A DNA stretch of 64,000 bases from Vairimorpha necatrix (Eukaryota): assembly GCA_036630325.1 (NCBI GenBank), contig CP142727.1, positions 124,001-188,000 of the forward strand, written 5' to 3'. Positions within the stretch are counted from its first letter, which is position 1, and the number at the start of each line of letters is the position of its first letter. Position numbers and translations under genes: made by a program. The notes beneath the pieces are model-generated. The model was given only the letters and a program-made list of their open reading frames with translations, ran no database searches and had not been told where the DNA came from. Below, one piece after another: positions 8,221 to 64,000 of this stretch.

Positions 8221-9600
8221 ATGCTTCATTACATTATATTAGTTTCAAGTTCAAACTCAGGAAAAAATTTTGAATCTATCCCATGTGAAAGTTTACAATC
8301 CATATACGATTTCAAAACTTTTAATTTACATCAAATTAATACAGAGCACAATAATTCGAATTCGCAGAAAAGTAGAGACTACGATACTTTGAACTCTACT
8401 CAAATTAACGAACACATTCCGTTCAACACACAAAATAGCAATGATTACAGTAATTCCTTTTATTATCCAAATATTAGCGATTATAATATTACGAATTTTT
8501 CACAAAAAGCTAACAACTTTTATAATTTTGATTTACAACAAAATAATACAGACCATTTGCCTATTATTCCTCACCAAAATGTACTCGACAAACATACTTT
8601 TAATTTACAACAAAACAATACATATAATTTTTTGGTAAATCCTCAACAAAATGTCCTCCACAACCATACTTTTAATTTACAACAAAACATTATATACTGT
8701 TTTAATATTAATTCCCAACAAAATGCTTATACCAACGGCAATAAAAATTTACAGCAAGATTATGTCTGTGTAAACACTTTTAACTTAAAAAAAAATATTT
8801 GTGATGACAATAACTATCGTTTTCAACAAAATAACAATCATGAAAGTCACTATGTACACAATAAAGAAACAAAAAAAAGAACTAAGCCATATACAAGAAC
8901 TTTTTCAGAACAATACATTCCTTACTATCAGATAAGAAGGCCTTCATTCTCTTCAACGTTGGCCTTTGTTGCGGTTTTGAGAGATAATTATACGAATATT
9001 ACAGATTATAATGACAGGCGAATCTTTTACTATCATTTACTTCATCAGTGGGAAAATGAACACTTAGATATAGAATTGGCTTCAGATAAATTAAAATTCC
9101 CAGACAGATATATTTATTATAAATATAGATACAATTCCAATATGACTGGTAAATGGTTAAAGAACTATAGGGAAATATTATATAAAGATCTGCCACAGGT
9201 AAAAAATGAGATAGAAATTTCATCTGTGGAAGAAACATATAAAAAAATAATAATTGAAAATATTGATTCTATTTCCCGAGCTATGGGTTATTTCGAAACA
9301 CTTTACCCAAAAGGGTTAAGTTATGCATATCATTCAGAAATATTAAAATTTAGATATAAGTTAATAAGCATTAGATTGCCGTGTCTTTATGAATATTTTA
9401 GTATCATTAAAGGTTTTTTAGATTTATACGAAATGATAATTGAACATTTTATAAAAAAAATAGCTAATTCTATGGCGCTGAAATCAATTTTAAATAATAT
9501 GACAATCAATGTAAAAATAATATTATATAATTATGAGGACTACCTCAAAGATATAAAATATAAACTAATACTACTTGAGAACCTCATAGAAGCTGATTAA
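8221..9600 (+). CDS. Family A protein with an extended N/Q-rich repeat N-terminus (459 aa)
   Basis: CCCCCTTTT before the ATG. C-terminal ~200 aa carry family A motifs (LLHQWE, ISRAMGYFE, RLPCLYEYF). Contains 24-aa repeats. Confidence 0.8.
   Translation: MLHYIILVSSSNSGKNFESIPCESLQSIYDFKTFNLHQINTEHNNSNSQKSRDYDTLNSTQINEHIPFNTQNSNDYSNSFYYPNISDYNITNFSQKANNFYNFDLQQNNTDHLPIIPHQNVLDKHTFNLQQNNTYNFLVNPQQNVLHNHTFNLQQNIIYCFNINSQQNAYTNGNKNLQQDYVCVNTFNLKKNICDDNNYRFQQNNNHESHYVHNKETKKRTKPYTRTFSEQYIPYYQIRRPSFSSTLAFVAVLRDNYTNITDYNDRRIFYYHLLHQWENEHLDIELASDKLKFPDRYIYYKYRYNSNMTGKWLKNYREILYKDLPQVKNEIEISSVEETYKKIIIENIDSISRAMGYFETLYPKGLSYAYHSEILKFRYKLISIRLPCLYEYFSIIKGFLDLYEMIIEHFIKKIANSMALKSILNNMTINVKIILYNYEDYLKDIKYKLILLENLIEAD
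8521..8760 (+). repeat. ~72-bp (24-aa) coding tandem repeat, 3-4 degenerate units (HTFNLQQN core)
   Basis: Unit starts at 8521, 8593, 8665 and 8737 with the tttacaacaaaa/tttacagcaaga core, spaced 72 bp apart. Confidence 0.75.
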
Positions 9601-10330
9601 AAACTATTTTATTAGGTAAAAAAGAAATTACAATTTATTAAATTTTTTGTTCAGCATATCTTTTTCTGTTAACGTCTATGATTATCTTATATTTCGTAAA
9701 ATATATCAAAAATAAGGTTATTGAATAATAATTTATTTGGTTTTTCTTTTTTTGCAATACGTCTCCTTATTAACTATCAGAAATAACCCTTATCTATTGC
9801 TTTTTCGACTTCAACGATGACTTTTCAGCGATTGATATCATTTTCGATAGTTCACAAAGGACTTTTTGTGTAATATTGGATGCCTTGTATTGCTTTTACT
9901 CTATTTTCTATTATAAAATACGACCTTATATCTTAGTTCTTGTGTTCTTTGTTATTACAAAAGTATTATTAACAATGTTATTTTTCTAATGTCAATTTTT
10001 TTCGATTGTAAATATGGTAAATCTCCGTATTCTTGCCATTTATAATATAAACTGTGTCGTAGATTCTAGGTATTTTTTAGCATATGGCGGCACATAAAAA
10101 GTTATTTGATACAAATATTCAAAATAAAAATCGGATAAAAAAAAATATAAATTTTATTATAGTTTAATTTGATGATTTTTGTTAATGTAAAATTTTATAT
10201 AAGTATAAATACGAATTTAAATTTTACAATTTCGAAGCATTTTTTTGAGAATAACTTGATTTGTTGCATAAAAGGGAATAATTACCCTAATCAAAAAAAT
10301 CGATGGGTTTAATTAGTGCAATATATGAGA

Positions 10331-13300
10331 TGTTATATATTCTTATATTTTTGATCCCTAATTATGATAAATAAATACATGGGGGCGATACCGAATTGTA
10401 AGTTAACAAGTGTTGGCTGTGGTCAAGAGGCCAGAAGGTTATTAGAAGAGTTTAAGAGGATTGTTTATGGATTAGTATTGTCTGATTATGATTTTGAGAA
10501 AAATGTAAAGAAGGAGATTTTTGATCTTGGAACTGATGAGTTGAAAAAATTTATGGTTAAGAATATTAAGATTGGAGATCATTGGAAAGTTATGGAAACC
10601 AAATTAGAGGAATTGGTTAAAGTACAGGAGGAAAAGGGTATGAGATTACGGATGATTGAGGAGGTCACAAAGATTGTGGCAGAGGAGATTAGAAATATTA
10701 GTAGAGAGGAAAGAATATTTGAAAATAGAGGAACAATGAGATGTTATAATTGTTCAAGAATGGAACATAAGAGTCAGATGTGTTATTATAGATATAGAAA
10801 TGTTAAGAATAAAGACGAATGTGACAAGATTAAAGATGAAGGTAGCAGTAGCTGTGATGAAAGGACTTATAGGAACACATGGAATGCTAAAAGACAAAAG
10901 AAACAAGAATGGAAGACAAGAAATAAAAGATGTTATGATGAGGTAGAAAAGAACGGTCTAACATTATAAGACATGAGAAAGAGGTTTAGGAACGTTATAG
11001 ACAACGAAGAAGAGAAAATAAGATATTGTAAAATTGAAAAATGCAGAATCAAAACTGAAGAAGGTAAGAAAGTTGTAAGGAAAGGTCAGCAGGTGCCACA
11101 AGCGCATAAAGAAGAGCTGAGAAAATATATTCAGAGGTTAGAGACAAGGAATGTCATAAGAAGATCGACGTCGGAATGGAGAAATCCGATTAAAGCTTTA
11201 GTTAAGCCAGATGGAAGTATAAGACTGGTTAGCAATCTCATAGCATTAAATGATTTAGTGGAGAAAGACCCCTATAAATTAGTGAACATTAGGGATATCA
11301 TAAGGAACACGCAAGGATCGAAGTTTTTCAGTGTTATATACCTTAAGGGGGCTTTTTATGGAATCGAAATAGAAGAGCAAGACAAGCATAAGACTGAATT
11401 TGAGTATGATAAGATAGTATATGAATGGAATAGTATGGTCATGGGGTTTAAAAACTCGCCTCAGATCATGCAGAGAATTATGAATAAGATTTTTGAAAAA
11501 CATTTGGGTGGTAAAATAAAAGTATACATGGATGATATAGTGATTCAAGCGAAGACTAGAAAAGAACATGATAAATTATTTGTAGAAGCGATGAAATTGT
11601 TAAAACGGAATAATATGCGGATAAATTCAAGGAAAATTCAGTATTGCCAAAAGGAAGTCAAGTTATTGGGAGTTACATTAAACGGAGATGATATGATGCC
11701 GTCTGAAATCAAGAAAAACGAAGCACTAGAGTTTCCAACGCCGCAAAATGTGTCTGACATAAGAAGATTTTTAGGACTGAGTGGATGGTTTCGAGGATTT
11801 ATTAAGAATTATGCGGAGAAGACATTATATATGACTGAAAGTTTGAAAGGTAAAAGTAAAGTATTGAATTGGACTGATGACTTAAATAAAGAGTTCGAAA
11901 ATATAAAGGAAACGTTAAGAAGTATGAGTAAGTTGAAAATTGTAAACTATGACAAGGAATTTTTATTAAGAACTGACGCGAGCAATATAGGAATGGGCGC
12001 AGTACTCATGCAGAAGAATGATAAAGAAGAGTGGGTGCCAGTACAATGGGCATCGAAGAAATTCACCCTGACGGAAACTAGATATGGTATAAGTGAAAAG
12101 GAAATGTATGCCATATATTGGGGAATAAAGAAATTTGAGTATGAGTTAAGAGGACGAAAATTTAAAGTAGAAACGGATCACAAAGCATTGGCGGAAATAA
12201 GAAGAAAGCCATGTTTTAATAATAATAGAATTAATCGATGGATTGAAAAGATCCAAGAATTTGACTTTGAAATAGATTACAGGAAACCAGAACATATGGT
12301 CGTGGCGGATGCCTTGAGTAGGATACACGAGGAGGTTGATCCAAGAAAAGAAATGATAAAAAAAAAAGAAGTGAGCGTCAAATTGAAGGTAAATGGTTGA
12401 AGCACGTCGAGACAATAGACGGTAAAGAATACTGGAATTTTGATTCGGGGAGGAAAGCATTGATTCCTAAAATAAAAGAAAGAGATGAGCTTATGAGACG
12501 TTATCATGAAGAGCATGGACACAGATGACTAGAAAGCATGTATTATGCCATGAAGTTTGATTATTATTGGCCAGGAATAAAAGAAGATATAGTGAAAATA
12601 ATAAAAAGATGCGAGGAGTGTCAAATTTACAATAGGAAAAAGTCTGGAGGATGTGATTTTGTTGCTACAAGCAGGTATTTAGAAAACGTAGCGTTAGATT
12701 TAATTGATTTTGGAGATAAGGGCAAATATGTATTAGTTGCGATAGATTACCATACGAGGATAGCGTGGGGATGTGTATTATACGATAAGAAGAGATCCTC
12801 TGTGGCCCAGTTTATTGAGAACTTATGTAGAAATGGCAGGAGGCCGAAGGAAATAATAACGGATAATGGGAAGGAATTTGATAATGTTGACTTTAAGGAT
12901 TGTGTAGAAAATTGGATATAACCCATAAAAAGGTGAGTGTCGAGTCTCATAGAAGCAATAATAGAGTTGAAAGTGTTATAGGAACGCTTAGAGAGCTAAT
13001 ATTTAAAATGAGTAAAGAGACGGCGAGTTTTAAAGACATAGTGATGGAAAGCTTTAAAATTTATAATAATAGTTACCATGAAGGTATAAGAAGTACTCCC
13101 AATGAAGCGGTAAAAGACAATACGGGAAAAATGATGATATTAAATGGACCAGAAGGAGACTACAGTAAAAGATTTGTTAGAAGATATAGAGAGCGGTTTA
13201 TTGAAGGACAACGAGTAAGGATAGCTGAGAAAGAAAACATCAAAGGATGTAATAAATACGAAAAGGGAAGGTTTTTAGACGAAGGTATTATAATGGTGAT

Positions 13301-13475
13301 ATGCCCTGGGGACTCGTATGTTGTGAAGCTATCTAATGGGCGATATGTTAAAAAGAGACATTATGACTTGAAAAATCTGCTTGGGGTTAATGGTGATGTA
13401 GGAGACTAACCGTCTTGGAGGGGGGATGTTATATATTCTTATATTTTTGATCCCCAATTAAGATAAATAAATACA
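10331..13475 (+). mobile_element. Ty3/gypsy LTR retrotransposon 1 (3145 bp, 49-bp LTRs), coding region disrupted
   Basis: LTRs 10331-10379 and 13427-13475 (TG...CA, 2 mismatches). TSD TGAGA on both sides. PBS TGGGGGCGATACC at 10380; PPT GGAGGGGGGA at 13417-13426. CCHC knuckle, RT YMDD, RNase H TDAS and integrase TDNGKEF. Confidence 0.95.
10364..13409 (+). pseudogene. gag-RT-RNaseH-integrase polyprotein of element 1, broken by stops and frameshifts
   Basis: Four ORF pieces (10364, 10973, 12538, 12900) are colinear with the intact 1037-aa ORF of element 2. TAA at 10967 aligns with Glu in element 2 (TL*D vs TLED). Confidence 0.9.
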
Positions 13476-13944
13476 TGAGATATTTATTAAATTCAAGGAA
13501 TATTATCTTAAAAATACATATACGCAAATAAAATAATTAATTATCAATGAACGCTACAAATATGCTGCAATTTTATTGTTACTACAAATCATCATATATG
13601 TGTTATTTCATTTAACGTAATACATGGTAGAAAATAAAGGAATTTCACAAATTTTTGTTACCTATGATATTTAATGCAAATAAAAAACATATTTTAATTT
13701 TTAAATAAAGCTAAAATATAATTAGAAACAAAGAAGATAAATTTTTAAACTGTATTTTTTTCCTTGCAATCAAATGTTGCTGTTTAATGTATCATTAATT
13801 TACAATTTAAAATTATACTTTGTTCCATGCAATTAAATTTCTTATACATAAACAGTATTTTTTGTTAAGTATATTTATTTTAATATAAAACCATCAAAAA
13901 CATTTTCTTAGGATATAAAAGATACTTTATCAATATCCCTAATT

Positions 13945-14877
13945 ATGTTTGTTATTTTATTGATTATAGATTACGGCCTAGGAAATGATAATCCAGACTT
14001 CACTTCAATAAAAAGATTTTTTTACGAGCCAAAGCGACTTCTGATTAAATGTAAATCGAAAAATAACGATTATGATAAACAAAAACTTTATTCTTTTAAC
14101 AAAAGACATTGTGCTTGTAAGCATACGTCAACACTTACAGATGCTTCTTTAAATAAAAAAATACAGTCAGTAAATATGCAAAATATTTCAAAATTTATGG
14201 ATGAAATGAAAAAATACAATCTAAAAAATAGTGATATCCTTGGAAATATTGATTATTATAATCGTCGTATTAAATGTTTTGACAGCCTTTTGCGTCAATG
14301 GGAAAATGAAAATTTTAATATAGCCATGACGCCCGAAAAAGTTGTATTCTCTAATACAAATAATCATAAAAAATTTATGTCTGATAAAATAATACATAAT
14401 CGATGGATGAGAAACTACAATGATTTATTAAAAGTATATTTGCCGCTGATTAAAAACGGGATAAAAAATTCATCTATATCTCAGATCAGTAAAAAAACAA
14501 TAACTAAAAAAATTGACTCTATTATGAGAGCAATGTCGTATTTTGAAAACTTAGAACCAAAAAATTTAAGGTTCGACTGCTATAGTAATGTTGTAATTTT
14601 TCGATATAATTTGATAAGTTATAGGTTTCCTTACTTATTTGACTATTTTGATTTGTCTGGGAGATTTGTAAATTTATATGAAATGATAATTATACATGAC
14701 ATTGATAAAGAATTTAATAGTATCAACATGATAAACATACTAAGTGGTATATCGAAAAAAATCGAAAAATTAATCAAAACTCGTGATGAATATATAAATT
14801 CCATAAGAGAAATGCTAAAATACTTGGAAAATTTAAAAAATATGAAACAAGTTTCGCTCGAATATTTCGAAAAATAA
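13945..14877 (+). CDS. Family A protein (310 aa)
   Basis: CCCTAATT before the ATG. Motifs NIDYYNRRIKCFDSLLRQWE, IMRAMSYFE and YRFPYLFDYFDL. Confidence 0.8.
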   Translation: MFVILLIIDYGLGNDNPDFTSIKRFFYEPKRLLIKCKSKNNDYDKQKLYSFNKRHCACKHTSTLTDASLNKKIQSVNMQNISKFMDEMKKYNLKNSDILGNIDYYNRRIKCFDSLLRQWENENFNIAMTPEKVVFSNTNNHKKFMSDKIIHNRWMRNYNDLLKVYLPLIKNGIKNSSISQISKKTITKKIDSIMRAMSYFENLEPKNLRFDCYSNVVIFRYNLISYRFPYLFDYFDLSGRFVNLYEMIIIHDIDKEFNSINMINILSGISKKIEKLIKTRDEYINSIREMLKYLENLKNMKQVSLEYFEK

Positions 14878-16394: not shown

Positions 16395-18195
16395 TGTCAC
16401 AGTTAGTTGGTGGAACCAGTTAGTAGAGGGAACCCTAAAAAAATTTATTAAAAAAGACCCCCGTGGGAATCGAACTTGGGACTTCTCGAAGGAATACAAT
16501 CACAATGAACGACTTTTTTGAGACGGTTCTAAATTTGTCCTAATTATATTATGGGGTATATTTCGAGTAATTTTATATAAATTTGGAGGGAAAAGAAATA
16601 AAAAAATAAAATAAACAACTTTTTAAAAAATTTATTCGTTATCAAGCAATCTTAGATCTCTAGTGTAAATTTCTTCTATAATAACCAATGGATCAGCTTC
16701 TTTAGATAACTTTACTTTATTAAATTGAAGTATATCCATTACAATATATACATCGACATCCAAATGTTCGTATAGAGGAAGCCTTCTAGTACTTTGATTA
16801 TTGTCTAAATATGGTCTTATAAGAACCCTATCTCCCAATTTATATTCGTAAAAGTCATTTCTCCACATACTTTTTTCAATCATTCTATTAGCAGCATTTT
16901 GAGTATTAAACCGTGCAGATTCGTGGTAAATTTCATTTAAAAAAAGATTTTCATTGTTTAAAGCATATAGTTTTTCGTAATTTACGACGTTATTTTCTTC
17001 AAAAACAAATTCTTCTCTTCGTTCTTCTTCCTCATTTTCAACTTCGTTGTTATTTGCAACCGAATCTATTATATCAGTGATTCTAGATTCTTGCATTATG
17101 TCTTTAATGGGCTTACCAAACATTAAACTGAATGGAGTTTGTTTAGTTGTTGAATGCCTTAAGTTGTTATATGCCCAGGTAACTTCTTGGCGTACTATGG
17201 ACCATTGCCCTAAGATATTCTTCGACCCCAGAGTAGATGCAATCATCCATTTTATTGTTTGATTGCATCGTTCTATCTGTCCTTGTATCCAAGGACATCT
17301 AGCTCTTCCTCTTACATGTCTTATTTCATACTTTACACATAAATTCACGATATATTGATTAACAAATTCTCTACCGTTGTCGGTATGAAGTATAAAACAA
17401 GATCCAAACGTATTGAATAGTGTTTCAAAGGCATCACGCACACTAATGCCAGTTTTGTCACGCAATGGAACCGTCCAACAGAACTTGGTAAATGAATCCA
17501 CTACGTTAAGTAACCATTTATACCCATCATTGAGTTCGTGATACAATCGAAGATCAATCAAATCAGCAATATACCTTTCTCTAGGATATTTTGAAATGAT
17601 TGGTCTAATAACTGGTCTAGTTATTAGGTTTCTTCTTGCTTGACAAATATCACAACTTTTCAAAACTCTCAGTACTTCGTTTTGAGTAACGTCGTATACT
17701 TTTGATTGTAACAATGGATACAATCTGTCACGCCCAGGATGTCCATTAGAAACATGAATCAGTTTGATGAAATCCAGTTTGAAACGCTGCTCATTGGTTG
17801 TAAAGAATTTCAATGATCTATATTGATCTACTTTAAACCTCACAGTTAGTTCAAAACTTCCATTGTTGTTTTCTTCAAACAACATGAAACGTTCAGCTTT
17901 TCTTTTAAAATTTTTACGATCAACTTTGTCCAACAACGTTGGTGGCAGCTGACCATATAATAAAAAATTATAAACTTCTTGTCTTTTATCATTGTCCATT
18001 TTTATTCTCATAACCCCACAAAACAAAAAATTATTTACTAAAAATTGAAGGATAATGTTACTGTATTTTCTTAATAATATTTTTTTTTCCTTTTTTAGTA
18101 AATTTTGTTTTCTTCGAGAGGTCCTGGGTTCGATCCCCACAGAGCTCTTTTTTAGGGTTCCCTCTACTAACTGGTTCCCTCTACTAACTGCGACA
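16395..18195 (-). mobile_element. Ginger-like (Ginger2/TDD-type) integrase DNA transposon, apparently intact
   Basis: TGT...ACA termini. ~48-bp TIR cores contain a 17-bp tandem repeat (CAGTTAGTAGAGGGAAC). 5-bp TSD TGTAT at 16390-16394 and 18196-18200. Single integrase ORF with no RT. Confidence 0.88.
16632..18011 (-). CDS. Retroviral-type (rve) DDE integrase/transposase (~459 aa)
   Basis: HHCC motif (HVSNGH...CDIC), ADLID, HTDNGREF and QGQIERCNQT. Likely start is the ATG at 18011 (after GGGGTT) or the next ATG; the track start lies in the terminal repeat. Confidence 0.88.
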   Translation of the reverse strand: MRIKMDNDKRQEVYNFLLYGQLPPTLLDKVDRKNFKRKAERFMLFEENNNGSFELTVRFKVDQYRSLKFFTTNEQRFKLDFIKLIHVSNGHPGRDRLYPLLQSKVYDVTQNEVLRVLKSCDICQARRNLITRPVIRPIISKYPRERYIADLIDLRLYHELNDGYKWLLNVVDSFTKFCWTVPLRDKTGISVRDAFETLFNTFGSCFILHTDNGREFVNQYIVNLCVKYEIRHVRGRARCPWIQGQIERCNQTIKWMIASTLGSKNILGQWSIVRQEVTWAYNNLRHSTTKQTPFSLMFGKPIKDIMQESRITDIIDSVANNNEVENEEEERREEFVFEENNVVNYEKLYALNNENLFLNEIYHESARFNTQNAANRMIEKSMWRNDFYEYKLGDRVLIRPYLDNNQSTRRLPLYEHLDVDVYIVMDILQFNKVKLSKEADPLVIIEEIYTRDLRLLDNE

Positions 18196-20777: not shown

Positions 20778-23700
20778 TGTCTTTATTTATCATAATGGGG
20801 GATAGAAATTATACAAATATATCACATCCCCCCCTCAAGACGGTTAGTCTCATCTAATTTTCACATCTACCCCAAGCATACCCTTCAGATCATAATGTCT
20901 ATTCTTCACAAGCCTACCATTACTAAGTTTTACAATATAAGAATCTTTTCCACACTTTTCAACAATTTTTCCTGTATCCAAAAATCTTCCTTTTTCATAC
21001 TTATTAACACCTGCCAAATTTTCTCGTTTAGCTATTCTTACCAATTGACATTTACTAAATTTTTCGATCTTTCCCTTTCCAAACCTATTACAATATTTCC
21101 CTATAGGGCTATTTTCAAGCATTACGTCTCCAGTTTTATCTTTAGTCGCTTCTAATGGTGTACATTTTATTCCCGTATGATAGCTCTGATTATATATATC
21201 GATACTTTTATACACTTTACCTTCAAAAGTATTCGCATCCGACTTTAAAATACTTTCTCTCAAAGTTCCTATAACACGCTCTACTCTTCCGTTACTTCTA
21301 TGCGCTTCTATACTTACTTGTCGGTGTATTATATCGAGATCTCTACAAAATTTTCTAAATTCCACGTTAATAAACTCTTTCCCGTTATCTGTAATAATTT
21401 CTTCTGGTTTCTTCCCTTGCTCACATAATTTTTTCAAAAATCCAACAACATTATTACTTGACTTGTTATTTATAACTACTCCCCATACTCTACGTGTAAA
21501 ATAATCGATAGCAACTAAAACATATTTCTTCTCATTTCTAAAGTCTATCAAATCTAATGCAACCTTCTCTAAGTATCTCGACGTATCTACAAATTCACAA
21601 CCACCCATATTTTTCCTGTTATATATCTGACATTTCTGACACTGTTTTATAACCTCGTTTATTTCTTTCTTTACTCCTGGCCAATAGTATTCTTCTCTCA
21701 TTGCATAATAAACACTTGTCATGCATCTGTGGCCTACTTTTTCATGATATTCTTGGATTAATTGTCTCCTTATATTCTCAGGTGGTATTTCAACTTTACG
21801 TCCTGAGTCAAATTGCCAATATTGCTTTCCATTCTCGGAAGAAACATGTGCTTTCCATTTACCTTCTGTTTGCTTGATTGTTCGCTCTTTATTTTTCATT
21901 TCTTTAATATCCTCTTCCATATTTATTCGACTCAACGCATCTGCTACCATTATCTCATCATGTTTTTTATATTCCACGATAAAATCATATTCCTGTATCT
22001 TCTCGATTAAGCGATTTATTCTGTTATTATTAAAAAACGGTTTATTTCTTATCTCCACCAGTGCTTTGTGATCCGTTTCTATTTTGAATTTCCTACCTCT
22101 TAACTCGTATTTAAATTTATCAATGCCCCAATATATCGCAAGCATTTCCTTTTCTGATATTCCATATCTTATTTCGGTAGGTGTTAGCTTTTTAGATGCC
22201 CATTGTATAGCAACCCATTCCCCATTCTCATTCTTCTGAAGTAACACCGCACCCAATCTCAAATTGCTAGCGTCTGTTCTTAGTATGAACTCCTTATTAT
22301 AGTCCGGTAATCTTAGTCTTCCCATATTTCTTAACACATTTTTCATTTTAGTAAATTCCTCTTTCATCTCTTCCGTAAATTTCCACGAATTGCCATTTTT
22401 CTTCAAACTATCTGTCATTTTCAACGTCAGCCCGGCATAATCTTTTATAAATGGTCTGAACCATCCAGTCAATCCTAGAAACCTCCTCAATTCCGTCAAA
22501 GTTTTTGGATCCGGATACTCCAAGGCTTCATTTTTCTTTATTTCGTCGGCCGTCATGTCTATTCCATTCAGCGTCACACCTAATAATTTTACTTCCGCTT
22601 GTCTAAACTGTATTTTCCCAATATTTAATTTCATTTTATTTCTCTTAATTCTTTCTATAACCTCTATTACTAATTCATCGTGTTTACGTTTATTGTTGGC
22701 ATGTATTACTATATCGTCCATGTATACCTCAACACCATTTCCTCGCAAATCTTCAAAAATCATATTCATTGTTCTCTGTAGTATCTGTGGGGAATTTTTG
22801 TATCCCATCACCATACTATTCCATTCGTAAACTTTTTTATTAAATTCAAACGCCGTCTTATGTTTATCTTTTTCTTCGATTTCAAAATGGTAAAATGCTT
22901 CTTTGCAATCAACAACAGTAAATATTATCGACCCTTGCGTAGCTCTTATTATTTCTCTCATATTAGTTAGCTCATACGGGTCTTTCTCGACTAAATCATT
23001 CAACCCTATAAAATTACTAACTACTCTTACTTCACCATTTGGTTTAAGTATCGCTCTTATTGGGTTTCGCCATTCCGAAGACGATCTTCTTATAATTTTT
23101 CTATTTTCTAAATCATTAATATATTCCTCAGTCTGTTTGATCAAAGCCTGTGGGATCGTCTGTCCCTTTCTGACTATCTTCTTACCCTCTGGAGTATCTA
23201 TCTTACACTTCTCTAATGTACAAAAACTTATAACCTCATCTCCTTGTTTAAAAACTTCTTCATATTCTGCTTTGAGATCTTCCAACGTAAATGCCCTCTT
23301 CAGTAATCTTCTTTTCGTCTCTTTATTGCTCGCATATATTCTTTCTTTATGTCTTCTATCACTATAATTACATTCCTTTAACTTAACTCGTTTTGTCTTT
23401 CCACTTGGTTTATATTCTTTATTATCATTACTGCTACTACAACTTTGGTTTTCGTCTAAATTTAAGTACTTATTAAACTTTTTATTATTTTCCTGATTAT
23501 TGTTCCTTCCTACATAGCAGTTCCTAGCCATATGGCCAAATTTACCACAATTAAAACAATTCCTATTATTTCTTATTTCTTGTACTGTATTCCTTAAAAC
23601 TAAATCTTTCTCTTGAATTTCTTTTCTCACAGTTTCTCTAACATTCTCAGCTATGACCTCCATAAGTTCTCTCCTTTTTTCTTCTTCTTTTTTAGTCCTT

Positions 23701-23996
23701 TCTTCTCTACATATTTCCTCCTCTAATTTCTCAATTATTTTATAATATTCGTCCTCTTTACTAATTCTTTCTACCATGAAATTTTTTATTTCTTCACTTC
23801 CTTCCATAAATATTCTCTGCTTCCACAAACTGATTTCTATTTCCTCCATCTCCAACCTATACATTATTCTTCTAACTTCTTTTAATAACTTTTTGGCCTC
23901 TAGACCACAGTCCACACTTGTAAACTGACGATTCGGTATCGCCCCCATGTCTTTATTTATCATAATGGGGGATAGAAATTATACAAATATATCACA
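20778..23996 (-). mobile_element. Ty3/gypsy LTR retrotransposon 2 (3219 bp, identical 49-bp LTRs), intact
   Basis: LTRs 20778-20826 and 23948-23996 are identical. TSD TTTTT. PBS TGGGGGCGATACC directly follows the 5' LTR; PPT GAGGGGGGGA at 20827-20836. Single uninterrupted ORF. Confidence 0.96.
20850..23963 (-). CDS. Single polyprotein: short Gag + CCHC, RT, RNase H, integrase (1037 aa); no visible protease
   Basis: CFNCGKFGHMARNC; YMDD; TDAS/EKEMLA/TDHKAL/ADALSR; HEKVGH..CQKC, LDLID, TDNGKEF, NGRVER. No D[ST]G motif between the knuckle and RT. Confidence 0.95.
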   Translation of the reverse strand: MINKDMGAIPNRQFTSVDCGLEAKKLLKEVRRIMYRLEMEEIEISLWKQRIFMEGSEEIKNFMVERISKEDEYYKIIEKLEEEICREERTKKEEEKRRELMEVIAENVRETVRKEIQEKDLVLRNTVQEIRNNRNCFNCGKFGHMARNCYVGRNNNQENNKKFNKYLNLDENQSCSSSNDNKEYKPSGKTKRVKLKECNYSDRRHKERIYASNKETKRRLLKRAFTLEDLKAEYEEVFKQGDEVISFCTLEKCKIDTPEGKKIVRKGQTIPQALIKQTEEYINDLENRKIIRRSSSEWRNPIRAILKPNGEVRVVSNFIGLNDLVEKDPYELTNMREIIRATQGSIIFTVVDCKEAFYHFEIEEKDKHKTAFEFNKKVYEWNSMVMGYKNSPQILQRTMNMIFEDLRGNGVEVYMDDIVIHANNKRKHDELVIEVIERIKRNKMKLNIGKIQFRQAEVKLLGVTLNGIDMTADEIKKNEALEYPDPKTLTELRRFLGLTGWFRPFIKDYAGLTLKMTDSLKKNGNSWKFTEEMKEEFTKMKNVLRNMGRLRLPDYNKEFILRTDASNLRLGAVLLQKNENGEWVAIQWASKKLTPTEIRYGISEKEMLAIYWGIDKFKYELRGRKFKIETDHKALVEIRNKPFFNNNRINRLIEKIQEYDFIVEYKKHDEIMVADALSRINMEEDIKEMKNKERTIKQTEGKWKAHVSSENGKQYWQFDSGRKVEIPPENIRRQLIQEYHEKVGHRCMTSVYYAMREEYYWPGVKKEINEVIKQCQKCQIYNRKNMGGCEFVDTSRYLEKVALDLIDFRNEKKYVLVAIDYFTRRVWGVVINNKSSNNVVGFLKKLCEQGKKPEEIITDNGKEFINVEFRKFCRDLDIIHRQVSIEAHRSNGRVERVIGTLRESILKSDANTFEGKVYKSIDIYNQSYHTGIKCTPLEATKDKTGDVMLENSPIGKYCNRFGKGKIEKFSKCQLVRIAKRENLAGVNKYEKGRFLDTGKIVEKCGKDSYIVKLSNGRLVKNRHYDLKGMLGVDVKIR

Positions 23997-29035: not shown

Positions 29036-29926
29036 ATGTTACAATATATATTGTTTGATATTAGTTTCACTATCGAAACAAATGAAAATAATTTATGGAG
29101 AGGATGGGAAGATCAATCAAAACTTAATTTCGATGAATTACAATTAATTAAAAACAATGATAATAATGTAAAAGAAAATTTATTGAACCAAATATATTCA
29201 TCTTATAGAAGAAGAAATGAAAAATTTAATGCTACATCTAGGAAAAAACCCAAATCAAAGATACTGCTAGGACTTTTAAAAAATTTTAATAACATTAAAT
29301 ATTATAACCATAAGTACAATGACATATCCGAAAACGTGGATCACTATAAGAGTCGTAAAATATGTTTCGATAGTCTTTTTAGACGATGGAAAAATGAAAA
29401 TTTTGATATAAAAGAGATATCCAATGCTAGAAAATTTAACAAAGAAGAAAGCAAAAAATACCTTGAAAATTCCTGCTCATGCAATAGATGGTCAAGAAAG
29501 TATAGTGCGATATTAAAAAAATATTTGCCTAAGATTAAAAAAGAGATTGCAAATTTATCGGCGGATGAAATATATAAACAGTCAACAATTAAAACTATAG
29601 ATTCTATATCTAATGCAATGGCATATTTTGAAAAAATACACCCCAAAAGTTTTAATTACAAAAAACGATATGACGAAATGGTAAATAACTATAGATTGAT
29701 AATTTATAGATTGCCCTATCTATTCGACTACTTTGACCTAGTTGGAAAATTTATAAAACTGTATGAAATGTTAATAGAGCAATGTATTGAAGAATCACCT
29801 GCTTATAACAACATGACAATAATACTATTTGAGATGTCCAAACAAATCATTAATATAACAATACTTCGTGGTGAATATTTAGAAAGAATCAAAAATAAGT
29901 TGAGATTACTGGAGAATTTAAAATAA
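29036..29926 (+). CDS. Family A protein (296 aa)
   Basis: CCCCACT-ATG; MLQYILFDISF; RKICFDSLFRRWKNE, AMAYFE and YRLPYLFDYFDL. Confidence 0.82.
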   Translation: MLQYILFDISFTIETNENNLWRGWEDQSKLNFDELQLIKNNDNNVKENLLNQIYSSYRRRNEKFNATSRKKPKSKILLGLLKNFNNIKYYNHKYNDISENVDHYKSRKICFDSLFRRWKNENFDIKEISNARKFNKEESKKYLENSCSCNRWSRKYSAILKKYLPKIKKEIANLSADEIYKQSTIKTIDSISNAMAYFEKIHPKSFNYKKRYDEMVNNYRLIIYRLPYLFDYFDLVGKFIKLYEMLIEQCIEESPAYNNMTIILFEMSKQIINITILRGEYLERIKNKLRLLENLK

Positions 29927-33059: not shown

Positions 33060-33950
33060 ATGTTACAATATATGTTGTTCATTATTAGTTCCGCCATTGA
33101 AACTAATGAATATAAATTATTGAGAGAGTCAGAGAACTATTCAAGACATGAAATTGACGGCATAAATTATAAAAATTACGACAATAGGGAACTAAATTCA
33201 AATACATCGAATGAGAGATATATCACTAGTAAAAAATTAAAAGCAACATCAAGTAATAAAACAACAAAAAAAACTCGGAAAAAACAATCTTCAGAACTAT
33301 TAAATGTCAAAAATAAATTTAAACGATATAATAATTATTACAATGACATATCCGAAAATACCTTATATTATACTAGACGTAAAATATGTTTTAATAATTT
33401 TTTGAATAAATGGGAGGATGAAAAATTGAAAATAGAAAAGATTTCTCATTATAGAAGATTTAATAAAGACGAAAGCGATCAATATGCAAAAAATTATTGT
33501 CCATGTAATAGATGGTTAAGAAAATACAATGAAATATTAAATAAATTTTTGCCTAGGATTTTAAAGGAAATAGAAAAATCAAAGATGGAAGAAACATTTA
33601 AAAAACAAATAATGGATCATATAAAAATCATATCTAGAGCCATGAGGTATTTTGCAAAGATTTACCCCCAAAATGCCAATTACCTAAAATATTACGACTA
33701 CAATATACTATACTATAGATTAATGGTTTATAGATTGCCTTATCTTTTTAACTACTTTGACCTAGGTGGCAGATTCGTAAAACTATATGAAATGCTGATT
33801 GATCAGTATGTTAATAAACTAGATATAACTAATATCATGACAACAACATTATTTGAGATGTCTGAAAAATTTATCTATGTAATAAAACTTCGTAAAAATT
33901 TTCTAGAAAAAATTAAAAGTAAATTAAATTTGCTAGAGAAGCTAAAATGA
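33060..33950 (+). CDS. Family A protein (296 aa), closest to 29036..29926
   Basis: CCCCATAC-ATG; MLQYMLFIISSAIETNE; YNDISEN, C.CNRW, ISRAMRYF and YRLPYLFNYFDL. Confidence 0.82.
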   Translation: MLQYMLFIISSAIETNEYKLLRESENYSRHEIDGINYKNYDNRELNSNTSNERYITSKKLKATSSNKTTKKTRKKQSSELLNVKNKFKRYNNYYNDISENTLYYTRRKICFNNFLNKWEDEKLKIEKISHYRRFNKDESDQYAKNYCPCNRWLRKYNEILNKFLPRILKEIEKSKMEETFKKQIMDHIKIISRAMRYFAKIYPQNANYLKYYDYNILYYRLMVYRLPYLFNYFDLGGRFVKLYEMLIDQYVNKLDITNIMTTTLFEMSEKFIYVIKLRKNFLEKIKSKLNLLEKLK

Positions 33951-35664: not shown

Positions 35665-37253
35665 AGTGACCGGAAGTTTCGTCCCGGTGGTAGGGGTTAA
35701 AAAAATAAAAAACTTGTTTTGTGTTTTTTTTTATTTTTTAACCCCTACCACCGGGACGAAACTTCCGAAAAAAAAAATAAAACTTTAATATTGCAATCAT
35801 TTCAAAGACAAAATCTGCACCAACCCCTTCATCCACAGTCTTATTCAAACAATCAGCTAGCCAATCTCTTTGTCAATGTATTTTTGTTTACGTTCAAAAA
35901 CATGATTTGAAACTGTTTGTTGTATTATCTTGATTCTAACTGTATCTTCTTCATCCTTTAACTTGCTCACTAATAGATAAAAACTGTAGCGACTAGTACC
36001 AAATGTGTTTTTAAAGGTATTATGCCAACCTATAATAGCATTATTCGTTCTTGGAAATCTATATCCATATTATTTCGCGCGTGCCACAAATTCGGCGGAA
36101 AACGTCATCCTAAATCAATATAATTTGTAAAGAAATAGCAATATAACTCAGTCAAGCATTCCGGAAAATTTCTGTCTTGTTTTAGTTCCAAAAAAGTAGA
36201 CAATATTTCGTCATATTCAACATATGCAAGTGCCGTAAGAGGCAAAACAAACCTTTTCACCATAGGTAAACACGTGATAAAAAAAAGTCCTGAACTTTTA
36301 ACACGCCTATCAATAGCCCGAGCTAAGTGAAAAAGACAACCTGAAATTTGACAATCCGGGAAAACTATAGAAAATGCCCTTATCGCAGCATACTCAAAAT
36401 CAGTTTTTATTAACCTTTGGTTGAGCTCTGGAAACCTTTTCTTTAACATTTGAAACAAAAAACAATAGGTTTTAAAACTTTTATCTTTCAAAATTGCAAA
36501 TATTATCGGGAATACATGCACATCACGGATAAAACCAATTGTGTAAAGTTGATAATATGGAATTGGAACCACCGCAAAGGTCCCATCCATCGCCTAAATG
36601 TCAAATAGAGCCAATTTTTTCATAGCCGAATCTGTATAAAAAATTATTATACTGTCATTGGGTTCGTCACTCCCGTACTTTTCAGGCCCATATCGATACC
36701 ATTGTTCGCCCGTATGACTGATTAATAAATCAACACATAAACCTAATTTTTGGTTGGCGTATGGTTTTGGATAAAAGGAATTCATCCGAGCATTCCTTAA
36801 TATCCTTGTAATAGGCTCAATAGGGCCCATTTCGGCGATCGTTTCTTCCCCAGCTCCTCTTAAGGCAGAAAAAGAAATGTTTCTAAGAGAATCTTTGGAG
36901 AGATAATTTCCCGTTTCATTTTATCTATTTTATTCTTTTTACAGACCAGTTCAGGATTTGGTTCATGATTATGAGCCGAAGAAATAAAAAAAGGATTCGA
37001 GTTTATCGACGTAAACAATACTACTAATGGCTTTGGCATTACAGCTTCGTACAATGCATCGCCACTTTATAGTATTTTTGTTGATTCTTTTTTTTCGTAA
37101 ATAAATAGAATTTCATCTATTATTTGATCCATATTCCTGTTGCTTTTAATGATCCTTTTTGTCCAGGTCATAGGGGTAAAAAATAAAAAAATAAAAAAGT
37201 TCGTTTTTTTTATTTTTTTAACCCCTAAAACCGGGACGAAAAAGCCGGGTACC
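35665..37253 (-). mobile_element. Mutator-like (MULE) DNA transposon with a disrupted transposase
   Basis: 9-bp TSD GTGCCTAAA at 35656-35664 and 37254-37262. Imperfect ~48-bp TIRs. Transposase pieces start at CCCCT-ATG (37171) and include WRC..C..HNH, DGTF, TDFEYAA, CLFH and RTNN..GWHN. Confidence 0.9.
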
Positions 37254-40229: not shown

Positions 40230-41569
40230 AATTTTTTTTCTGATAAACCAAATTATGTCCTCGCTTATTTACGCTACAGCATACATTTCTTACTATAGAC
40301 ACTTTAAAACATATATATGTATTTGACAGTATATATTTCATTTTACTTTTACAATAGTCTTACAAAGCTTTATCTTATAATATAGTATTTGTACATCATC
40401 GAGAATTTAACACAGAGATATCGCTGATTAGTCAATTTAATACAAAATTTTATAATTAAATACCGCCCTTAAAATTAGAACATCATAGTATTTAATAAAT
40501 TAGAATGATTTTATATTACTTTATATACCTCAAATACGTTTTAAAAGTTTTATTAAATTTTACATTTGTTGTGTCATCCTAGTGCATTAGTTTAGAATAC
40601 TTGATCTAATTTGCAGATCAGTAGTCACTTAGTAAAAAAAAATTTGCATATTACAAGTACAAGATAATTATGAAAGATTGGAATATATATATATCAGTCA
40701 CTAGTAGAAACTTACAAGTTAAAACAATGTCTAGACAATCAATTCTCAAAAAAAGTAATAATAATATATTTATAAAAAAATCATAAACGGAAGCACTTTA
40801 TTCATCATACAAAGCAGTAAATTTTTTTCAAAAAGAAAAAAACAAAATCAATATATTAAATTTTAAGTAAATTTCAATTAAAAACATTATATATACTATT
40901 TAACATAAATTACGTGGTATAAAATGATTAAACTTCAATATCTAAAAAAAATATTTTGCTTCGGCTCCATATAATGATATAATGTTTATATGTTTTTAAA
41001 ATGTAAATTATTGTAATTTGAAATTAATATGAACATAATAATATATTATGATTACTATGGTTGCATATATTTTATGCAACGATTTGTTTAGATTCGTTTT
41101 TTTTTGTAACATAGCTTTAAATATGGTCAGAATCGTTTTTTTAAAAATTTTATAACTCCCAAAAGATTGCAAAAAAAACGTGCAATATAATTGGCAAAAT
41201 AAATAAAATTACGATTATAAATTAGACCAAATACAGTTTTAAATCTCCTCCCTATTTCTTTAAAAATTGAATTACCACTACCATCTAATTTTGATTAAAA
41301 AAATTTGCATGCTAAAAATTTCATATTTTCTCTGTTTAATAATTTTCCTTAAACAAAAGATGAATTTCTACCAAAATAATAATTAAGTAGATGAATAAAA
41401 TAATTTTGTTTAAAGACCATTAAATTATACAAATAATAAGAGTTGGGTTAACTCGTTTTATAAACAAAGAATGCTTAAATCTCAAGTTATTTTAATTTAT
41501 ATCGCTTTTTTTAATGATAAAAAACAAAATCAGCATTCTAAATTTGATGGTTTTTTTACCTTTATATAT

Positions 41570-42460
41570 ATGCTACAAATTATTTTGTTTGTTAGTAGTC
41601 TCACATTAGGAAATAATAACAATAATTTATGAGAGGATAGAATATCCTGAAAATGATTGGCTCGACAAAACAAAAGACGATGACAAAAACTACTTCAAAG
41701 TAAAATTAAAACCAATAAATGAAAGCTCTTTCCCCAATAAAAGAACAAAAGCGATATTAAGTGATACTGATAACAAAACATATCAATCAAATCGGCAAAC
41801 TACTTACTAAAATTCTTTAGGAATATTAAGATATGCAATCATAAAAATATTTCATTAATAAAGAAACTATATGCTATAATAGACGTGTAAAATGTTTTCA
41901 TAGTTTTTTTGGACCAATGGGAGGCCGACAATCTAGAAATACAAAATACCACTATAAATATTAAATTTGAAAACGATGATTACAAAAAATATAATTAAAA
42001 AATGAAATAAAACGTAATCGGTCGAAGGATTAGAAGGAATATTAAACGATTATAAAACAAAAAATTAGGCAAAAAGATGAAAACCCATCGTCACAAAAAA
42101 AATACAAACAAAAAATAACTAAAAACATATGTTTTATGTCTTGAGCTATGAAATATTATGGATCATTGATGCCGCAATCTAAAAAATAACAGGTATATTA
42201 CAAAGAACTAATAGAATACTATACTTTAATAAGCTATAGATTACCATTCTATTTGACTATTTTGACTTATGTGAGAGATTTAATGATTTTATGAAGTAAT
42301 AATTGAGCAGTACATATAAATAGCAGATTATACCAACAACATGATACAAACATTAATTGAAATGTCCAAAAAAATAACATTACAATAAAAAATCGTACTA
42401 CAAATCTGCAAAACATATAAGAAATAATAAAATTGCTTAAAAAGTCAAATAAAAAGTATT
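41570..42460 (+). pseudogene. Family A pseudogene
   Basis: MLQIILFVSSLTLGNNNNNL then TGA. Relic YNRRVKCFHSF, QWEADNLEI, AMKYYG and YRLPF..DYFDLC with many stops and frameshifts. End approximate. Confidence 0.75.
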
Positions 42461-43586
42461 TAAATACCCCTTATTATAAAACGTAAAAAGGTATTTTGTT
42501 TATTTTGTCACTTGTTTTTTCGCAGTTTTGTAATATCTAAACTTCTTATTTTTTATTTTTGCATAAAAATGAACCTAGAGCAGCAGTTTATCAATTTTGA
42601 TTGCTTATACACCCTGACACAAAAAAAAAATATATGGTAAAAATTCACTTTAGTAAATCTAGGATCAAATAAAAAGCAAGATTCGTTTTTAAATTTTCAA
42701 AAACAATAACAACAAGACGAATTACATAAATGTGAAAATGCAATAAGTCAAATATTGCAATAGAATTTTTATACTTATTTATTGTGTATTATAAAAAATT
42801 TTAAAACATGTGGATGCAATCTTTTGCGCAATAAAAATTTCTAATATTTAAAAGATCATAATTTCTCCTAAAAAGAGGAAATTTTAAAAACCATTATTAA
42901 AACAAGGAGCTCTAATTTTTTACGTTTTATAAAGACCAATAAAAAAATGCACATAACATTATGTATTTGTAATCTTTTATGATTGTATGATACTTTAATT
43001 CTAAGATAAAATTAATATGGAACTTATATTTTTTTACATCGCAATATATAAAGAAATTTCTTTAAGTTCTTACAATTTATTTTAGTTTTGAATCAACTTA
43101 ATTGCCATTCTAAATTTTTTAAAATTTTTTTTTGGTTTGAACTTAAAGGAACAATTTGATAAATAATTTTATTAAGCTTTATGTTAATATGTTTCATTTT
43201 AGTTTTTTTCCTAAAAACAATTCAAATTATAGTCAAAATTGGTTTTAGATTTATTTAATTTTTTTAGTAAAAATTCCAAAAACAATTAACCATTAAAAAT
43301 AATATTTTACAAATAAAAAAAGCAATAATATTATTTTAGAATTATGGAAATTGTCTTGATAATTTTATAACTGTTTTTAAATCAATTTTATTGTATAAAT
43401 CGAATTTAAAAGTTTTTTTCAAGATCATATTTTCACTTTTTGTTTTTTTACCAATAAAAGTAAATGCAAAAAATTAAAGAGGTAAATTACATAAAAAATC
43501 ATGTGAAAATTCGCATTAAAATATAGATCAAGCACTAGTGATAAATTAATTTTTGAATATGGACAAATTTTTTGACCCCCATATTA

Positions 43587-62448: not shown

Positions 62449-64000
62449 TGTAGGAATATATGTCAATGTCAAATATATAATCGAGTTGATATATTTGACA
62501 TCTGATCTTTTAAACAATTTTATAAAAATAAACCCATGTTTTGTTCCAACAATTTGGCGACAAGCGACAAAAATATTCTTCTCATCTTCAGAAATGAAGA
62601 GAAAGACGACCCACAACAGTTCATAGAGGACTTGATGGAAGTGGGCAGGTTGAATGAGTACAGCGAGGGTAAGATGTTACTTACATTCAAGATGTCTCTT
62701 AGGGAAGAAGCAAAAGATTGGATAATGGCCCAACCAGTAGGGCCAGACTTGGGTGAACTAATAGATAGATTCAGGGAGAGATTTGTCAGTAATATGATTC
62801 TGAAGATTAGTTTGGAAAAGCTTGCAGCATTGAAGTATACAGGTGGATCTATTCTGAACTATCTCGACAGAATGGGTGCCATAGCGAGGAAAGGAAATGT
62901 ACCAGAACAAGTCCTGGTAGCGTTTACATTGAATGGTCTGCCGAATAATCTAGCTAACATCGTGCTTATTAACAACAAAGAGGGCCTTACGTGGAAATAC
63001 ATCTATGATTCATTAAAGAATATTAAGGATACGAGAGAGACCGAGCGAAACCAGATAGCATTCTCATACTGTCAAGAAGTTAAGGTCGAAGCAATAAGAA
63101 ACAAAGTTAATAGTAAAAAATCAAGCTATTCAAAAATTAGATGTTTGATCTGTAGCGAGCAAGGACATGTGGTCTCTCAATGTCGTTTCAACAGTTTAAG
63201 GAAAAGCTCTAAGGTGAAAAAACAAGTTAGAGAGGTTAGTATACCACAAGGGAATGATGAGATAGATGTGGAAGAAGAGGACTTGAATAAATTTATTTTT
63301 AATTATAGGTTATTAAATAGCAGAAGTAATCGATCCACTGTTAAGTTGGCTACACTTGAGAACAATAAACGACCGTTTAAGGTATTATTAGATACAGGTG
63401 CAGAAGTTAATTTGATTAGGCCGGAACACCTTGAAGACAAAACGAGATTGACTAGAGATAATCTTCAATTACGGGCGGCCAACGGGTCACAGATAAGAAT
63501 CATAGGGAAAACGATGCTGAAAATAAAAATAGAAGGATACATATTTGAAGACGAATTTATTGTAACACGGGACATCACCATGCCGTGCATAGTAGGATGG
63601 ACATTATTGGACAAATATGAAGTTGACCTAAGATTTGGAAATGGAAAGGTCAACATGGAGTCGGGACAAATCCTTAAAGGAAATGCAATTGGATATCATA
63701 GGATTAACACGGGAGATAGTGAGCCAGTCATGGCTCAGCTATATAAATTAGGCGGAACGAAAGAAAAAGAGGCATCTAAAATAATAAAAGAATACCTTGA
63801 GCTGGGGGTGATACGGCCAAGTGAGAGTGCTTGGCGAAGTCCAGTGATTGTAGTACCAAAAAAAGATGGAGGATATAGATTGTGTATAGATTACAGGCGG
63901 CTTAATGATATTACGATTAAGGATGCATACCCCATGCCTAGAGTGGATGAGTTTATTGATGCACTAGAGGGTGCAAGTTATTTTACTAAGATGGATGCAG
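62449..64000 (+). mobile_element. Ty3/gypsy LTR retrotransposon 3, 5' part (runs off the window)
   Basis: Putative 5' LTR 62449-62551 with TGTAGGAA...TTCCAACA inverted ends. PBS TGGCGACAAGCGAC at 62555. The 3' LTR is outside the window, so the LTR start is unconfirmed. Confidence 0.8.
62536..64000 (+). CDS. Gag-protease-RT polyprotein, open to the window end (absent from the ORF track)
   Basis: Hand translation is open from CCC-ATG at 62536: MFCSNNLATSD.., capsid-like region, CLICSEQGHVVSQC knuckle, protease VLLDTGAEVNLI, RT SAWRSPVIVVPKKDGGYRLCIDYRRLN. Confidence 0.92.
   Translation, partial: MFCSNNLATSDKNILLIFRNEEKDDPQQFIEDLMEVGRLNEYSEGKMLLTFKMSLREEAKDWIMAQPVGPDLGELIDRFRERFVSNMILKISLEKLAALKYTGGSILNYLDRMGAIARKGNVPEQVLVAFTLNGLPNNLANIVLINNKEGLTWKYIYDSLKNIKDTRETERNQIAFSYCQEVKVEAIRNKVNSKKSSYSKIRCLICSEQGHVVSQCRFNSLRKSSKVKKQVREVSIPQGNDEIDVEEEDLNKFIFNYRLLNSRSNRSTVKLATLENNKRPFKVLLDTGAEVNLIRPEHLEDKTRLTRDNLQLRAANGSQIRIIGKTMLKIKIEGYIFEDEFIVTRDITMPCIVGWTLLDKYEVDLRFGNGKVNMESGQILKGNAIGYHRINTGDSEPVMAQLYKLGGTKEKEASKIIKEYLELGVIRPSESAWRSPVIVVPKKDGGYRLCIDYRRLNDITIKDAYPMPRVDEFIDALEGASYFTKMDA

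Follow-up and report, generated by a model that had tools for sequence, protein, structure and literature searches.

Where does translation of gag begin in the Ty3/gypsy retrotransposons of microsporidia? This question is raised by a 64,000-nucleotide (nt) stretch of the Vairimorpha necatrix genome (contig CP142727.1, positions 124,001 to 188,000; hereafter the window, in whose own numbering positions are given), which carries three Ty3/gypsy elements, here called elements 1, 2 and 3. An earlier note on this DNA claimed that the gag-pol open reading frame (ORF) of each starts inside the 5' long terminal repeat (LTR) and reads through the LTR end and the primer-binding site (PBS). On re-reading, the three in-LTR ATGs (10364; 23963, minus strand; 62536), the encoded N-terminal peptides (MINKYMGAIP, MINKDMGAIP and MFCSNNLATS, respectively) and the LTR ends were all as claimed, and the frames are open across the LTR end and a tRNA-matched PBS in all three elements (tRNA-Pro, tRNA-Pro and tRNA-Ser). 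All three have TG...CA LTR ends, 5-bp target duplications and polypurine tracts, and in each a CCC/GGG motif stands shortly ahead of the ATG, after an AT-rich tract. The LTR length of 49 bp given in the note applies to elements 1 and 2 but not to element 3, whose LTR measures 103 bp. The genome itself has a low GC content, compact genes and CCC motifs ahead of host gene starts, in keeping with a microsporidian of the Nosema/Vairimorpha type.

Start codons within the LTRs across the genome

The V. necatrix assembly (label G000; 15.0 Mb in 12 contigs) was surveyed for elements of this kind. A search with the RT_RNaseH profile gave 754 candidates genome-wide, 150 of which were scored; 110 loci were examined for LTRs, 81 had an LTR pair and a PBS, and the 29 with no detected LTR pair were dropped. 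Clustering by reverse transcriptase (RT) at 90% gave 18 clusters, which became 22 families after one was dropped (family M2, L166, whose copy is frameshifted directly after the PBS), one was split and four were added on inspection.

An in-frame, open ATG lying wholly within the 5' LTR was found in 75 of the 81 full elements; three have an ATG across the LTR/PBS junction only, and three have none. Counted by family, an in-LTR ATG is present in the gag frame in 21/22 families, as compared with 1/22 and 0/22 for the other two frames. Shuffled LTRs yield such an ATG in 4.5-22% of cases, and a chance origin was rejected, given that 2.96 of the 22 families would be expected to carry one and 21 do. 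Judged by these counts, the putative gag-pol start within the LTR is real, general and well above chance.

The families differ in LTR length (48-350 bp), in the offset of the ATG from the LTR end (-10 to -90) and in the spacer between LTR and PBS (0-3 nt). Four tRNAs are used as primers, tRNA-Pro, tRNA-Ser, tRNA-Ala and tRNA-Leu, with Ala and Leu PBS matches of up to 14 bases; 38 of 63 tRNA matches were inspected for this comparison, and the exact tRNA-Pro(AGG) was located by pattern. Target duplications of exactly 5 bp flank 74 of the 81 elements, and a single gag-pol ORF of 1014-1278 amino acids was found in 20 of the 22 family representatives, the other two being interrupted copies. Among the LTR matches listed for the Pro-primed families, 53 of 55 keep the ATG, which is weak evidence as these copies are young.

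The TGG of the PBS begins at codon position 1 in none of the 22 family representatives. In seven loci (L116, L127, L129, L134, L143, L144 and L146), the ORF crosses the polypurine tract and ends 41-83 nt into the 3' LTR; both LTRs are therefore coding. Four Leu-primed sequences (L127, L129, L132 and L143) have a 9-bp hairpin with compensatory changes in the last 30 nt of the LTR, in its coding part. The element at L137 (G000:C5:831800-841000) sits in frame in a host ORF, where 681 open codons upstream cross the 124-bp LTR into gag-pol; the whole frame has 1921 codons, and 103 codons are read out of the 3' LTR. At L151 and L152, the ATG of the 3' LTR reads in frame 172 and 235 codons into the flank, respectively, and both flanks resemble other mobile elements.

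Signs that the LTR-coded frame is used

In the sister families of element 3, there is one base more between the ATG and the LTR end and four fewer further on; the PBS is read in a different frame and the peptide is altered, and the ATG is kept in frame with Gag. Where an AATAAA is located after the in-LTR ATG, it lies in frame 0, encoding Asn-Lys, in 14/14 families and never in the stop frame. Element 3 has no in-frame ATG between the in-LTR ATG and Met34, which is the first after the PBS. This Met34 falls downstream of a Phe that is invariant in 10/10 aligned Gags and within a predicted helix (residues 26-39), while residues 1-13, encoded by the LTR and the PBS, have low confidence in the structure model. 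Met34 of element 2 likewise lies within the first predicted helix of its model. A Gag initiated at the next ATG would have its first predicted helix truncated, and in two families related to elements 1 and 2, no Met follows the PBS until residue 64 or 123.

In-LTR starts in other microsporidia

Named relatives of the V. necatrix retroelement proteins occur in Nosema granulosis, where the first nine residues of a Gag-Pol are the same as those of element 3. Among 150 database matches, 36 Gag-like proteins were picked, and 34 remained after removal of two near-copies of V. necatrix families. A PBS-coded Met-Val-Glu is found near the N-terminus in 21 of these 34 proteins, 12 of which have a Met further upstream, all starts being those of gene callers, taken without DNA context.

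The survey of other microsporidia for an in-LTR CCC-ATG that the earlier note had proposed had a positive outcome in Anncaliia algerae. By a hand count of Supplementary Table S1 in Parisot et al. 2014, 43 of the 50 complete families have an ORF that starts within the LTR, and a CCC/GGG-ATG was seen in 5 of 6 sequences from the same supplement inspected by eye (PMC4202319). The main text of that paper, as far as it was available, has no match for PBS, primer, CCC or start codon, and its Figure 1A may draw the overlap (PMC4202319); the layout is therefore tabulated there and not described. From the sequences compared, an in-LTR start looks like the rule for microsporidian elements.

Likeness to host promoters and proposed mechanism

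The host-type context that the earlier note had described was borne out genome-wide. In 18/22 families, the in-LTR ATG has a CCC or GGG no more than 20 nt away, and such a motif is near 40 of 52 host ORF starts, as compared with 37 of 306 internal ATGs. Host mRNAs of Encephalitozoon cuniculi have 5' untranslated regions (UTRs) of <7 nt with a CCC-like or GGG-like motif just upstream (PMC2803860), in agreement with the very short microsporidian leaders assumed in the note; AAUAAA is weakly recognised in Encephalitozoon (PMC2803860). The further claim that the start context in the LTR of element 1 is identical to that of the host gene at 13945 is correct for 13 bases, but the identity is fortuitous and confined to a single copy. 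Of 12 printed copies of the element 1 family, one has CCCT and seven have CCCC, which also stands in the 3' LTR of element 1 itself. Derivation of the host gene start from an LTR was rejected, since the likeness is limited to these 13 bases and specific to that copy.

We propose that the LTR combines a microsporidian core promoter with the first codons of Gag. U3 would hold the AT-rich tract and the CCC/GGG motif, and transcription would begin a few bases ahead of the next ATG, as in host genes. Since the promoter must sit in U3 and the host grammar calls for short leaders, the first ATG would land inside the LTR. The genomic RNA would then be nearly leaderless, and one gag-pol frame would traverse the LTR end and the PBS and continue as far as the polypurine tract or past it into the 3' LTR. 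The residues encoded by LTR and PBS would form a disordered N-terminal tail, in which the frame would count for more than the letters. Competition between the tRNA primer and an initiating ribosome might be expected, as the PBS is 16-19 nt past the ATG.

In elements 1 and 2, U3 may comprise about 30 nt and R about 20 nt, and U5 may be minimal or missing. The AATAAA of the 49-bp LTR ends 4 nt short of the LTR end; cleavage would therefore fall on the terminal CA or in flanking DNA, such that a true U5 would be lacking. The same AATAAA would encode Asn-Lys in the 5' copy and direct polyadenylation in the 3' copy. Families of the 49-bp type insert at AT-rich sites (91% AT in 22 target duplications, as compared with 68% in 52 others). 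In element 3, the AATAAA lies 9 nt before the ATG and is probably part of U3, and therefore only its 3' copy would be transcribed; families with long LTRs may have space for a coding U5, where one of them keeps a hairpin with compensatory changes (four sequences). The earlier note had held that both U5 and the PBS were made coding. This stands for the PBS, but LTRs of 49 and 103 bp have little room for U5, given where the AATAAA lies, and their coding part is more probably R. The next ATG of elements 1 and 2 straddles the LTR/PBS junction, as the note had also said; it is in the gag frame, the PBS is coding whichever of the two ATGs is used, and this junction ATG is a likely back-up start. During retroelement replication, two bases of the junction ATG are copied from the CCA end of the tRNA.

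A wider reading, offered as a tentative one, joins these steps. All microsporidian gypsy genomes might be near-leaderless and coding from end to end, with an LTR that consists of a host-type promoter, a start codon and a poly(A) signal, in which R is coding and U5 almost gone, and with only about 20 nt of minus-strand strong-stop DNA. The PBS would be covered by a ribosome that initiates 16 nt ahead of it, such that translation and tRNA priming would be mutually exclusive and would switch the RNA between its roles as mRNA and as genome. A self-renewing second start would be provided by the junction ATG, two of its bases being recopied from the tRNA CCA in each cycle, and the LTR would be a portable promoter-plus-ATG cassette able to fuse with host ORFs.

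Weighing of alternative start sites

Translation from the in-LTR ATG is the reading favored here, with a probability of roughly 0.8, and a number of points weigh against it. The layout, the tRNA matches, the conservation of the frame and its generality can be read off the DNA; use of the in-LTR ATG, the transcription start site and the poly(A) site are inferred from it. The families are related, and the counts over 22 families are therefore not independent, while the product of the shuffle rates (3e-10) was taken across 11 lineages of our own choice. The 22nd family, J, has no ATG wholly within the LTR, its sole ATG being that at the LTR/PBS junction. Families B2, H1, H2 and I have additional in-frame ATGs further upstream in the LTR, and the first ATG can therefore not be read from the sequence alone. 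No CCC or GGG is found within 20 nt in 4/22 families. The predicted model of the element 2 Gag gave no fold match; for the element 3 Gag model, the best fold matches are the capsids of Arc, PNMA2 and PEG10, which at a best E of 1.2e-3 miss the level of 0.001, and the Retrotrans_gag match has an E of 0.005, with the sister families above the cut-off. The ORF positions in A. algerae are ORF Finder output on consensus sequences, and 7 of the 50 families are listed with an ORF start outside the LTR (PMC4202319), one of which, retro_S, reads by eye as swapped columns. One of the six A. algerae sequences inspected, retro_H, has no CCC/GGG and an unclear LTR end. A metagenome scan for gypsy relatives gave 79 loci (26-33% identity; most with no full LTR pair), none of which is a close relative of the V. 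necatrix elements; in a small control of six of these loci with a recognizable LTR end, picked by eye and read in a frame that was not always gag, no in-LTR ATG was found.

In the zero-spacer families, which include elements 1 and 2, the junction ATG could be the working start, with the ATG 15 nt upstream too near the cap or ahead of the transcription start site, an arrangement that would leave the PBS coding all the same. In 12/12 zero-spacer families, the junction ATG is in frame with gag; it is the one LTR ATG that family J has, and 9 of the 34 independent Gag-like proteins are called from the PBS-coded Met-Val-Glu. Such a start is nevertheless unlikely, considering that element 3 and nine other families with a spacer keep the in-LTR ATG and have no junction ATG, and that in two A. 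algerae families the junction reads TTG and the upstream ATG is retained. The CCC lies 5 nt from the upstream ATG, within the range commonest in host genes (2-6 nt), as compared with 20 nt from the junction ATG. Moreover, the ATG is fixed at -16 in four Pro-primed families that are 62-73% alike in RT, and the 12 proteins with a Met upstream of Met-Val-Glu also argue for the upstream start. It is less probable still that the in-LTR ATG and the open frame are a by-product of short, AT-rich LTRs with conserved ends and that the true Gag start is the first ATG past the PBS. ATGs are indeed frequent in AT-rich DNA, as the shuffled LTRs illustrate, and in family D one Met after the PBS comes before the conserved Gag motif. 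This explanation is, however, at odds with the excess over the shuffles and with the compensated frameshift in the sister families of element 3, and the start it calls for would fall within or beyond the first Gag helix, or at residue 64-123.

Inheritance or convergence

The earlier note had interpreted the layout as separate adaptation of distinct gypsy lineages, an interpretation that came out as somewhat the less probable one. In an unrooted RT tree with 35 unnamed metagenomic RTs as outgroup (35 of the 79 loci, after removal of stops and near-copies), all 21 V. necatrix rows lie together on one side of a branch with support of 82/91, which recurs in 83% of bootstrap trees. Because these rows group together and A. 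algerae shares lineage-specific junction details, it is at least as likely, and slightly favored, that the layout was inherited from an ancient gypsy stock of microsporidia. Under convergence, separate gypsy lineages would have entered microsporidia, and in each of them the short-leader regime would have drawn the start codon into the LTR. The RTs of elements 2 and 3 share 30% identity, and the two elements differ in tRNA and spacer and belong to different well-supported RT groups; three microsporidia-specific groups were described by Parisot et al. (PMC4202319), and an earlier quick RT tree without three of the families split the V. necatrix rows in two. The tree with all 21 rows unites them, though, no lineage without the trait was seen, and the spacer and frame peculiar to each lineage recur in A. 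algerae, those of elements 1/2 in retro_L and those of element 3 in retro_O, which leaves convergence a serious but less probable explanation.

Features of the elements and of the window

The positions of the features of the three elements are collected in Table 1.

Table 1. Parts of elements 1 to 3 and the related host start context, in window positions.
Feature	Position	Strand	Details
Element 1 target-site duplication	10326..10330; repeat 13476-13480	+	TGAGA
Element 1 5' LTR	10331..10379	+	49 bp, TG...CA; AT-rich tract, CCC 10356-10358, ATG 10364
Element 1 second in-frame ATG	10379..10381	+	Last LTR base and first two PBS bases
Element 1 PBS	10380..10393	+	Within gag frame, adjoins LTR; 14/14 complementary to tRNA-Pro(AGG) plus CCA
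Element 1 gag-pol, decayed	10364..13409	+	Four ORFs (201, 475, 127, 133 amino acids); RT, RNase H and integrase matches
Element 1 polypurine tract and 3' LTR (13427-13475)	13417..13475	+	Two differences from 5' LTR, one within ATG
Host gene start context	13935..13947	+	13 bases identical to element 1 5' LTR only
Element 2 5' LTR	23948..23996	-	49 bp; CCCCC, then ATG 23963; AATAAA 6 nt past ATG
Element 2 PBS, coding	23934..23947	-	tRNA-Pro AGG, 14/14 bases
Element 2 single ORF	20850..23963	-	1037 amino acids; short Gag with CCHC, RT, RNase H, integrase; no protease motif
Element 2 polypurine tract and 3' LTR (20826-20778)	20778..20836	-	3' LTR identical to 5' LTR
Element 3 5' LTR	62449..62551	+	103 bp; AATAAA 62527-62532, CCC 62533-62535, ATG 62536
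Element 3 3-nt spacer and PBS, coding	62552..62563	+	tRNA-Ser, 9-base match; no junction ATG
Element 3 gag-protease-RT	62536..64000	+	Extends past window; 1172 amino acids in L046

In elements 1 and 2, 14/14 PBS positions match the genomic tRNA-Pro(AGG), counted over the first 14 bases of its 3' end, and the Pfam domain order of both is RT, RNase H, then integrase. The AATAAA of element 1 (10370-10375) is in frame as Asn-Lys; the element is decayed, with a stop after codon 201, further breaks and an altered ATG in the 3' LTR. Element 2 is flanked by the target duplication AAAAA. Its Gag has a CCHC motif only and is some 80 residues shorter than in the sister clade, and a homologue search with residues 1-160 returned nothing at E 0.001 among 643 candidates. 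No aspartic protease motif was found between Gag and RT in element 1, element 2 or the four Pro-primed families, and because this motif is absent, elements 1 and 2 were classed as a protease-less Ty3/gypsy derivative, not as canonical members. The Pro-primed clade (10331-13475 and 20778-23996; L001, L061, L154 and L159) consists of elements of 3.1-3.2 kb with many near-identical copies despite the lack of a protease motif, and its Gag is about 80 residues shorter than that of the sister Ala-primed clade.

Element 3 has the target duplication CCTTG. Its protease and the first part of its RT lie inside the window, and its 3' LTR lies beyond it and was read in the full locus (L046); an RNase H match was also obtained, and by the features compared, element 3 is a Ty3/gypsy element. 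The 3' LTR at L046 holds one 6-bp repeat unit more than the 103-bp 5' LTR, and other copies measure 103-115 bp.

Elsewhere in the window, 48-bp terminal inverted repeats (16395-18195) flank an ORF for a 459-amino-acid integrase (16632-18011, minus strand) with a GGGG motif ahead of its ATG; on these features, it is a DNA transposon with a retro-type integrase. Inverted repeats at 35670-37248 flank a MULE transposase fragment. A dispersed family of host genes encoding proteins of about 300 amino acids (1580-2488, 8221-9600, 13945-14877, 29036-29926, 33060-33950 and about 41500-44460) has hydrophobic N-termini; some members are decayed, and the two that were scanned had no Pfam match.

Comparison with known systems

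The layout suggests that host transcription grammar can reshape an LTR element: where 5' leaders are of few bases, any U3 promoter would place the first ATG inside the LTR. It bears on the minimal size of R and U5 and on how one stretch of RNA can serve both ribosome and primer. For annotation, microsporidian gag starts are to be sought within the LTR, and an LTR of only about 50 bp can easily escape notice. In the literature searched, whose coverage is thin for subscription papers, no description of an in-LTR start or a coding PBS was found for Ty3/gypsy elements or for microsporidia; the original description of Nbr is reportedly that of Xu et al. 2006. The sole match for "inside the LTR" in the texts available was an unrelated one (PMC11302176), and neither PMC7313128 nor the accessible part of PMC10759460 has a match for LTR or gypsy. 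ORF and LTR numbers of microsporidian elements have been tabulated since 2014 (PMC4202319).

The closest likenesses are found in that table. Aalg retro L resembles elements 1 and 2 in its 50-bp LTR, an ORF from base 32, a length of 3127 bp, a CCC-ATG and an in-frame junction ATG (PMC4202319), but its AATAAA stands before the ATG, whereas that of elements 1 and 2 follows it, and its PBS is different. Aalg retro O has the same spacer and frame as element 3, and the microsporidia-specific Ty3/gypsy groups that Parisot et al. described in 2014 likewise encode a single polyprotein (PMC4202319). The microsporidian host core promoter combines a CCC/GGG-like motif with an AT-rich tract (PMC2803860), and the LTRs share this motif with it at a host-like distance before the in-LTR ATG. 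Unlike the host promoter, the LTR copy sits in a terminal repeat that also holds the integrase ends, the poly(A) signal and the strand-transfer region.

Ty3 of Saccharomyces cerevisiae resembles the V. necatrix elements in domain order, TG...CA LTRs, PBS, polypurine tract and target duplication, which in Ty3 is 5 bp long. It differs in having a bipartite PBS in an untranslated 5' region and separate gag and pol frames, and in that elements 1 and 2 have no protease motif.

The principle of a coding PBS is already known from Ty1 of S. cerevisiae, a member of another superfamily (Ty1/copia, Pseudoviridae). The LTR of Ty1 ends at nucleotide 334. Its PBS lies inside the GAG ORF (PMC4974528), and because the 53-nt 5' UTR begins at the RNA start at nucleotide 241 and the primer-pairing bases are 335-347, the AUG lies about 40 nt before the PBS (PMC5454406). 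Ty1 is therefore a known exception to the earlier note's statement that Gag normally starts downstream of the PBS (PMC4974528, PMC5454406). As in the V. necatrix elements, the PBS is within the gag frame and the start codon upstream of the LTR end. A Ty1/copia identity of these elements was rejected on domain order, the integrase not standing before RT. Ty1 has the order protease-integrase-RT, gag and pol joined by a frameshift, a structured 53-nt leader and an initiator-Met primer, whereas the V. necatrix elements have the order RT-RNase H-integrase in one ORF, LTRs down to 48 bp with an ATG 16 nt from the LTR end, and four elongator tRNAs as primers, with the trait spread over many families.

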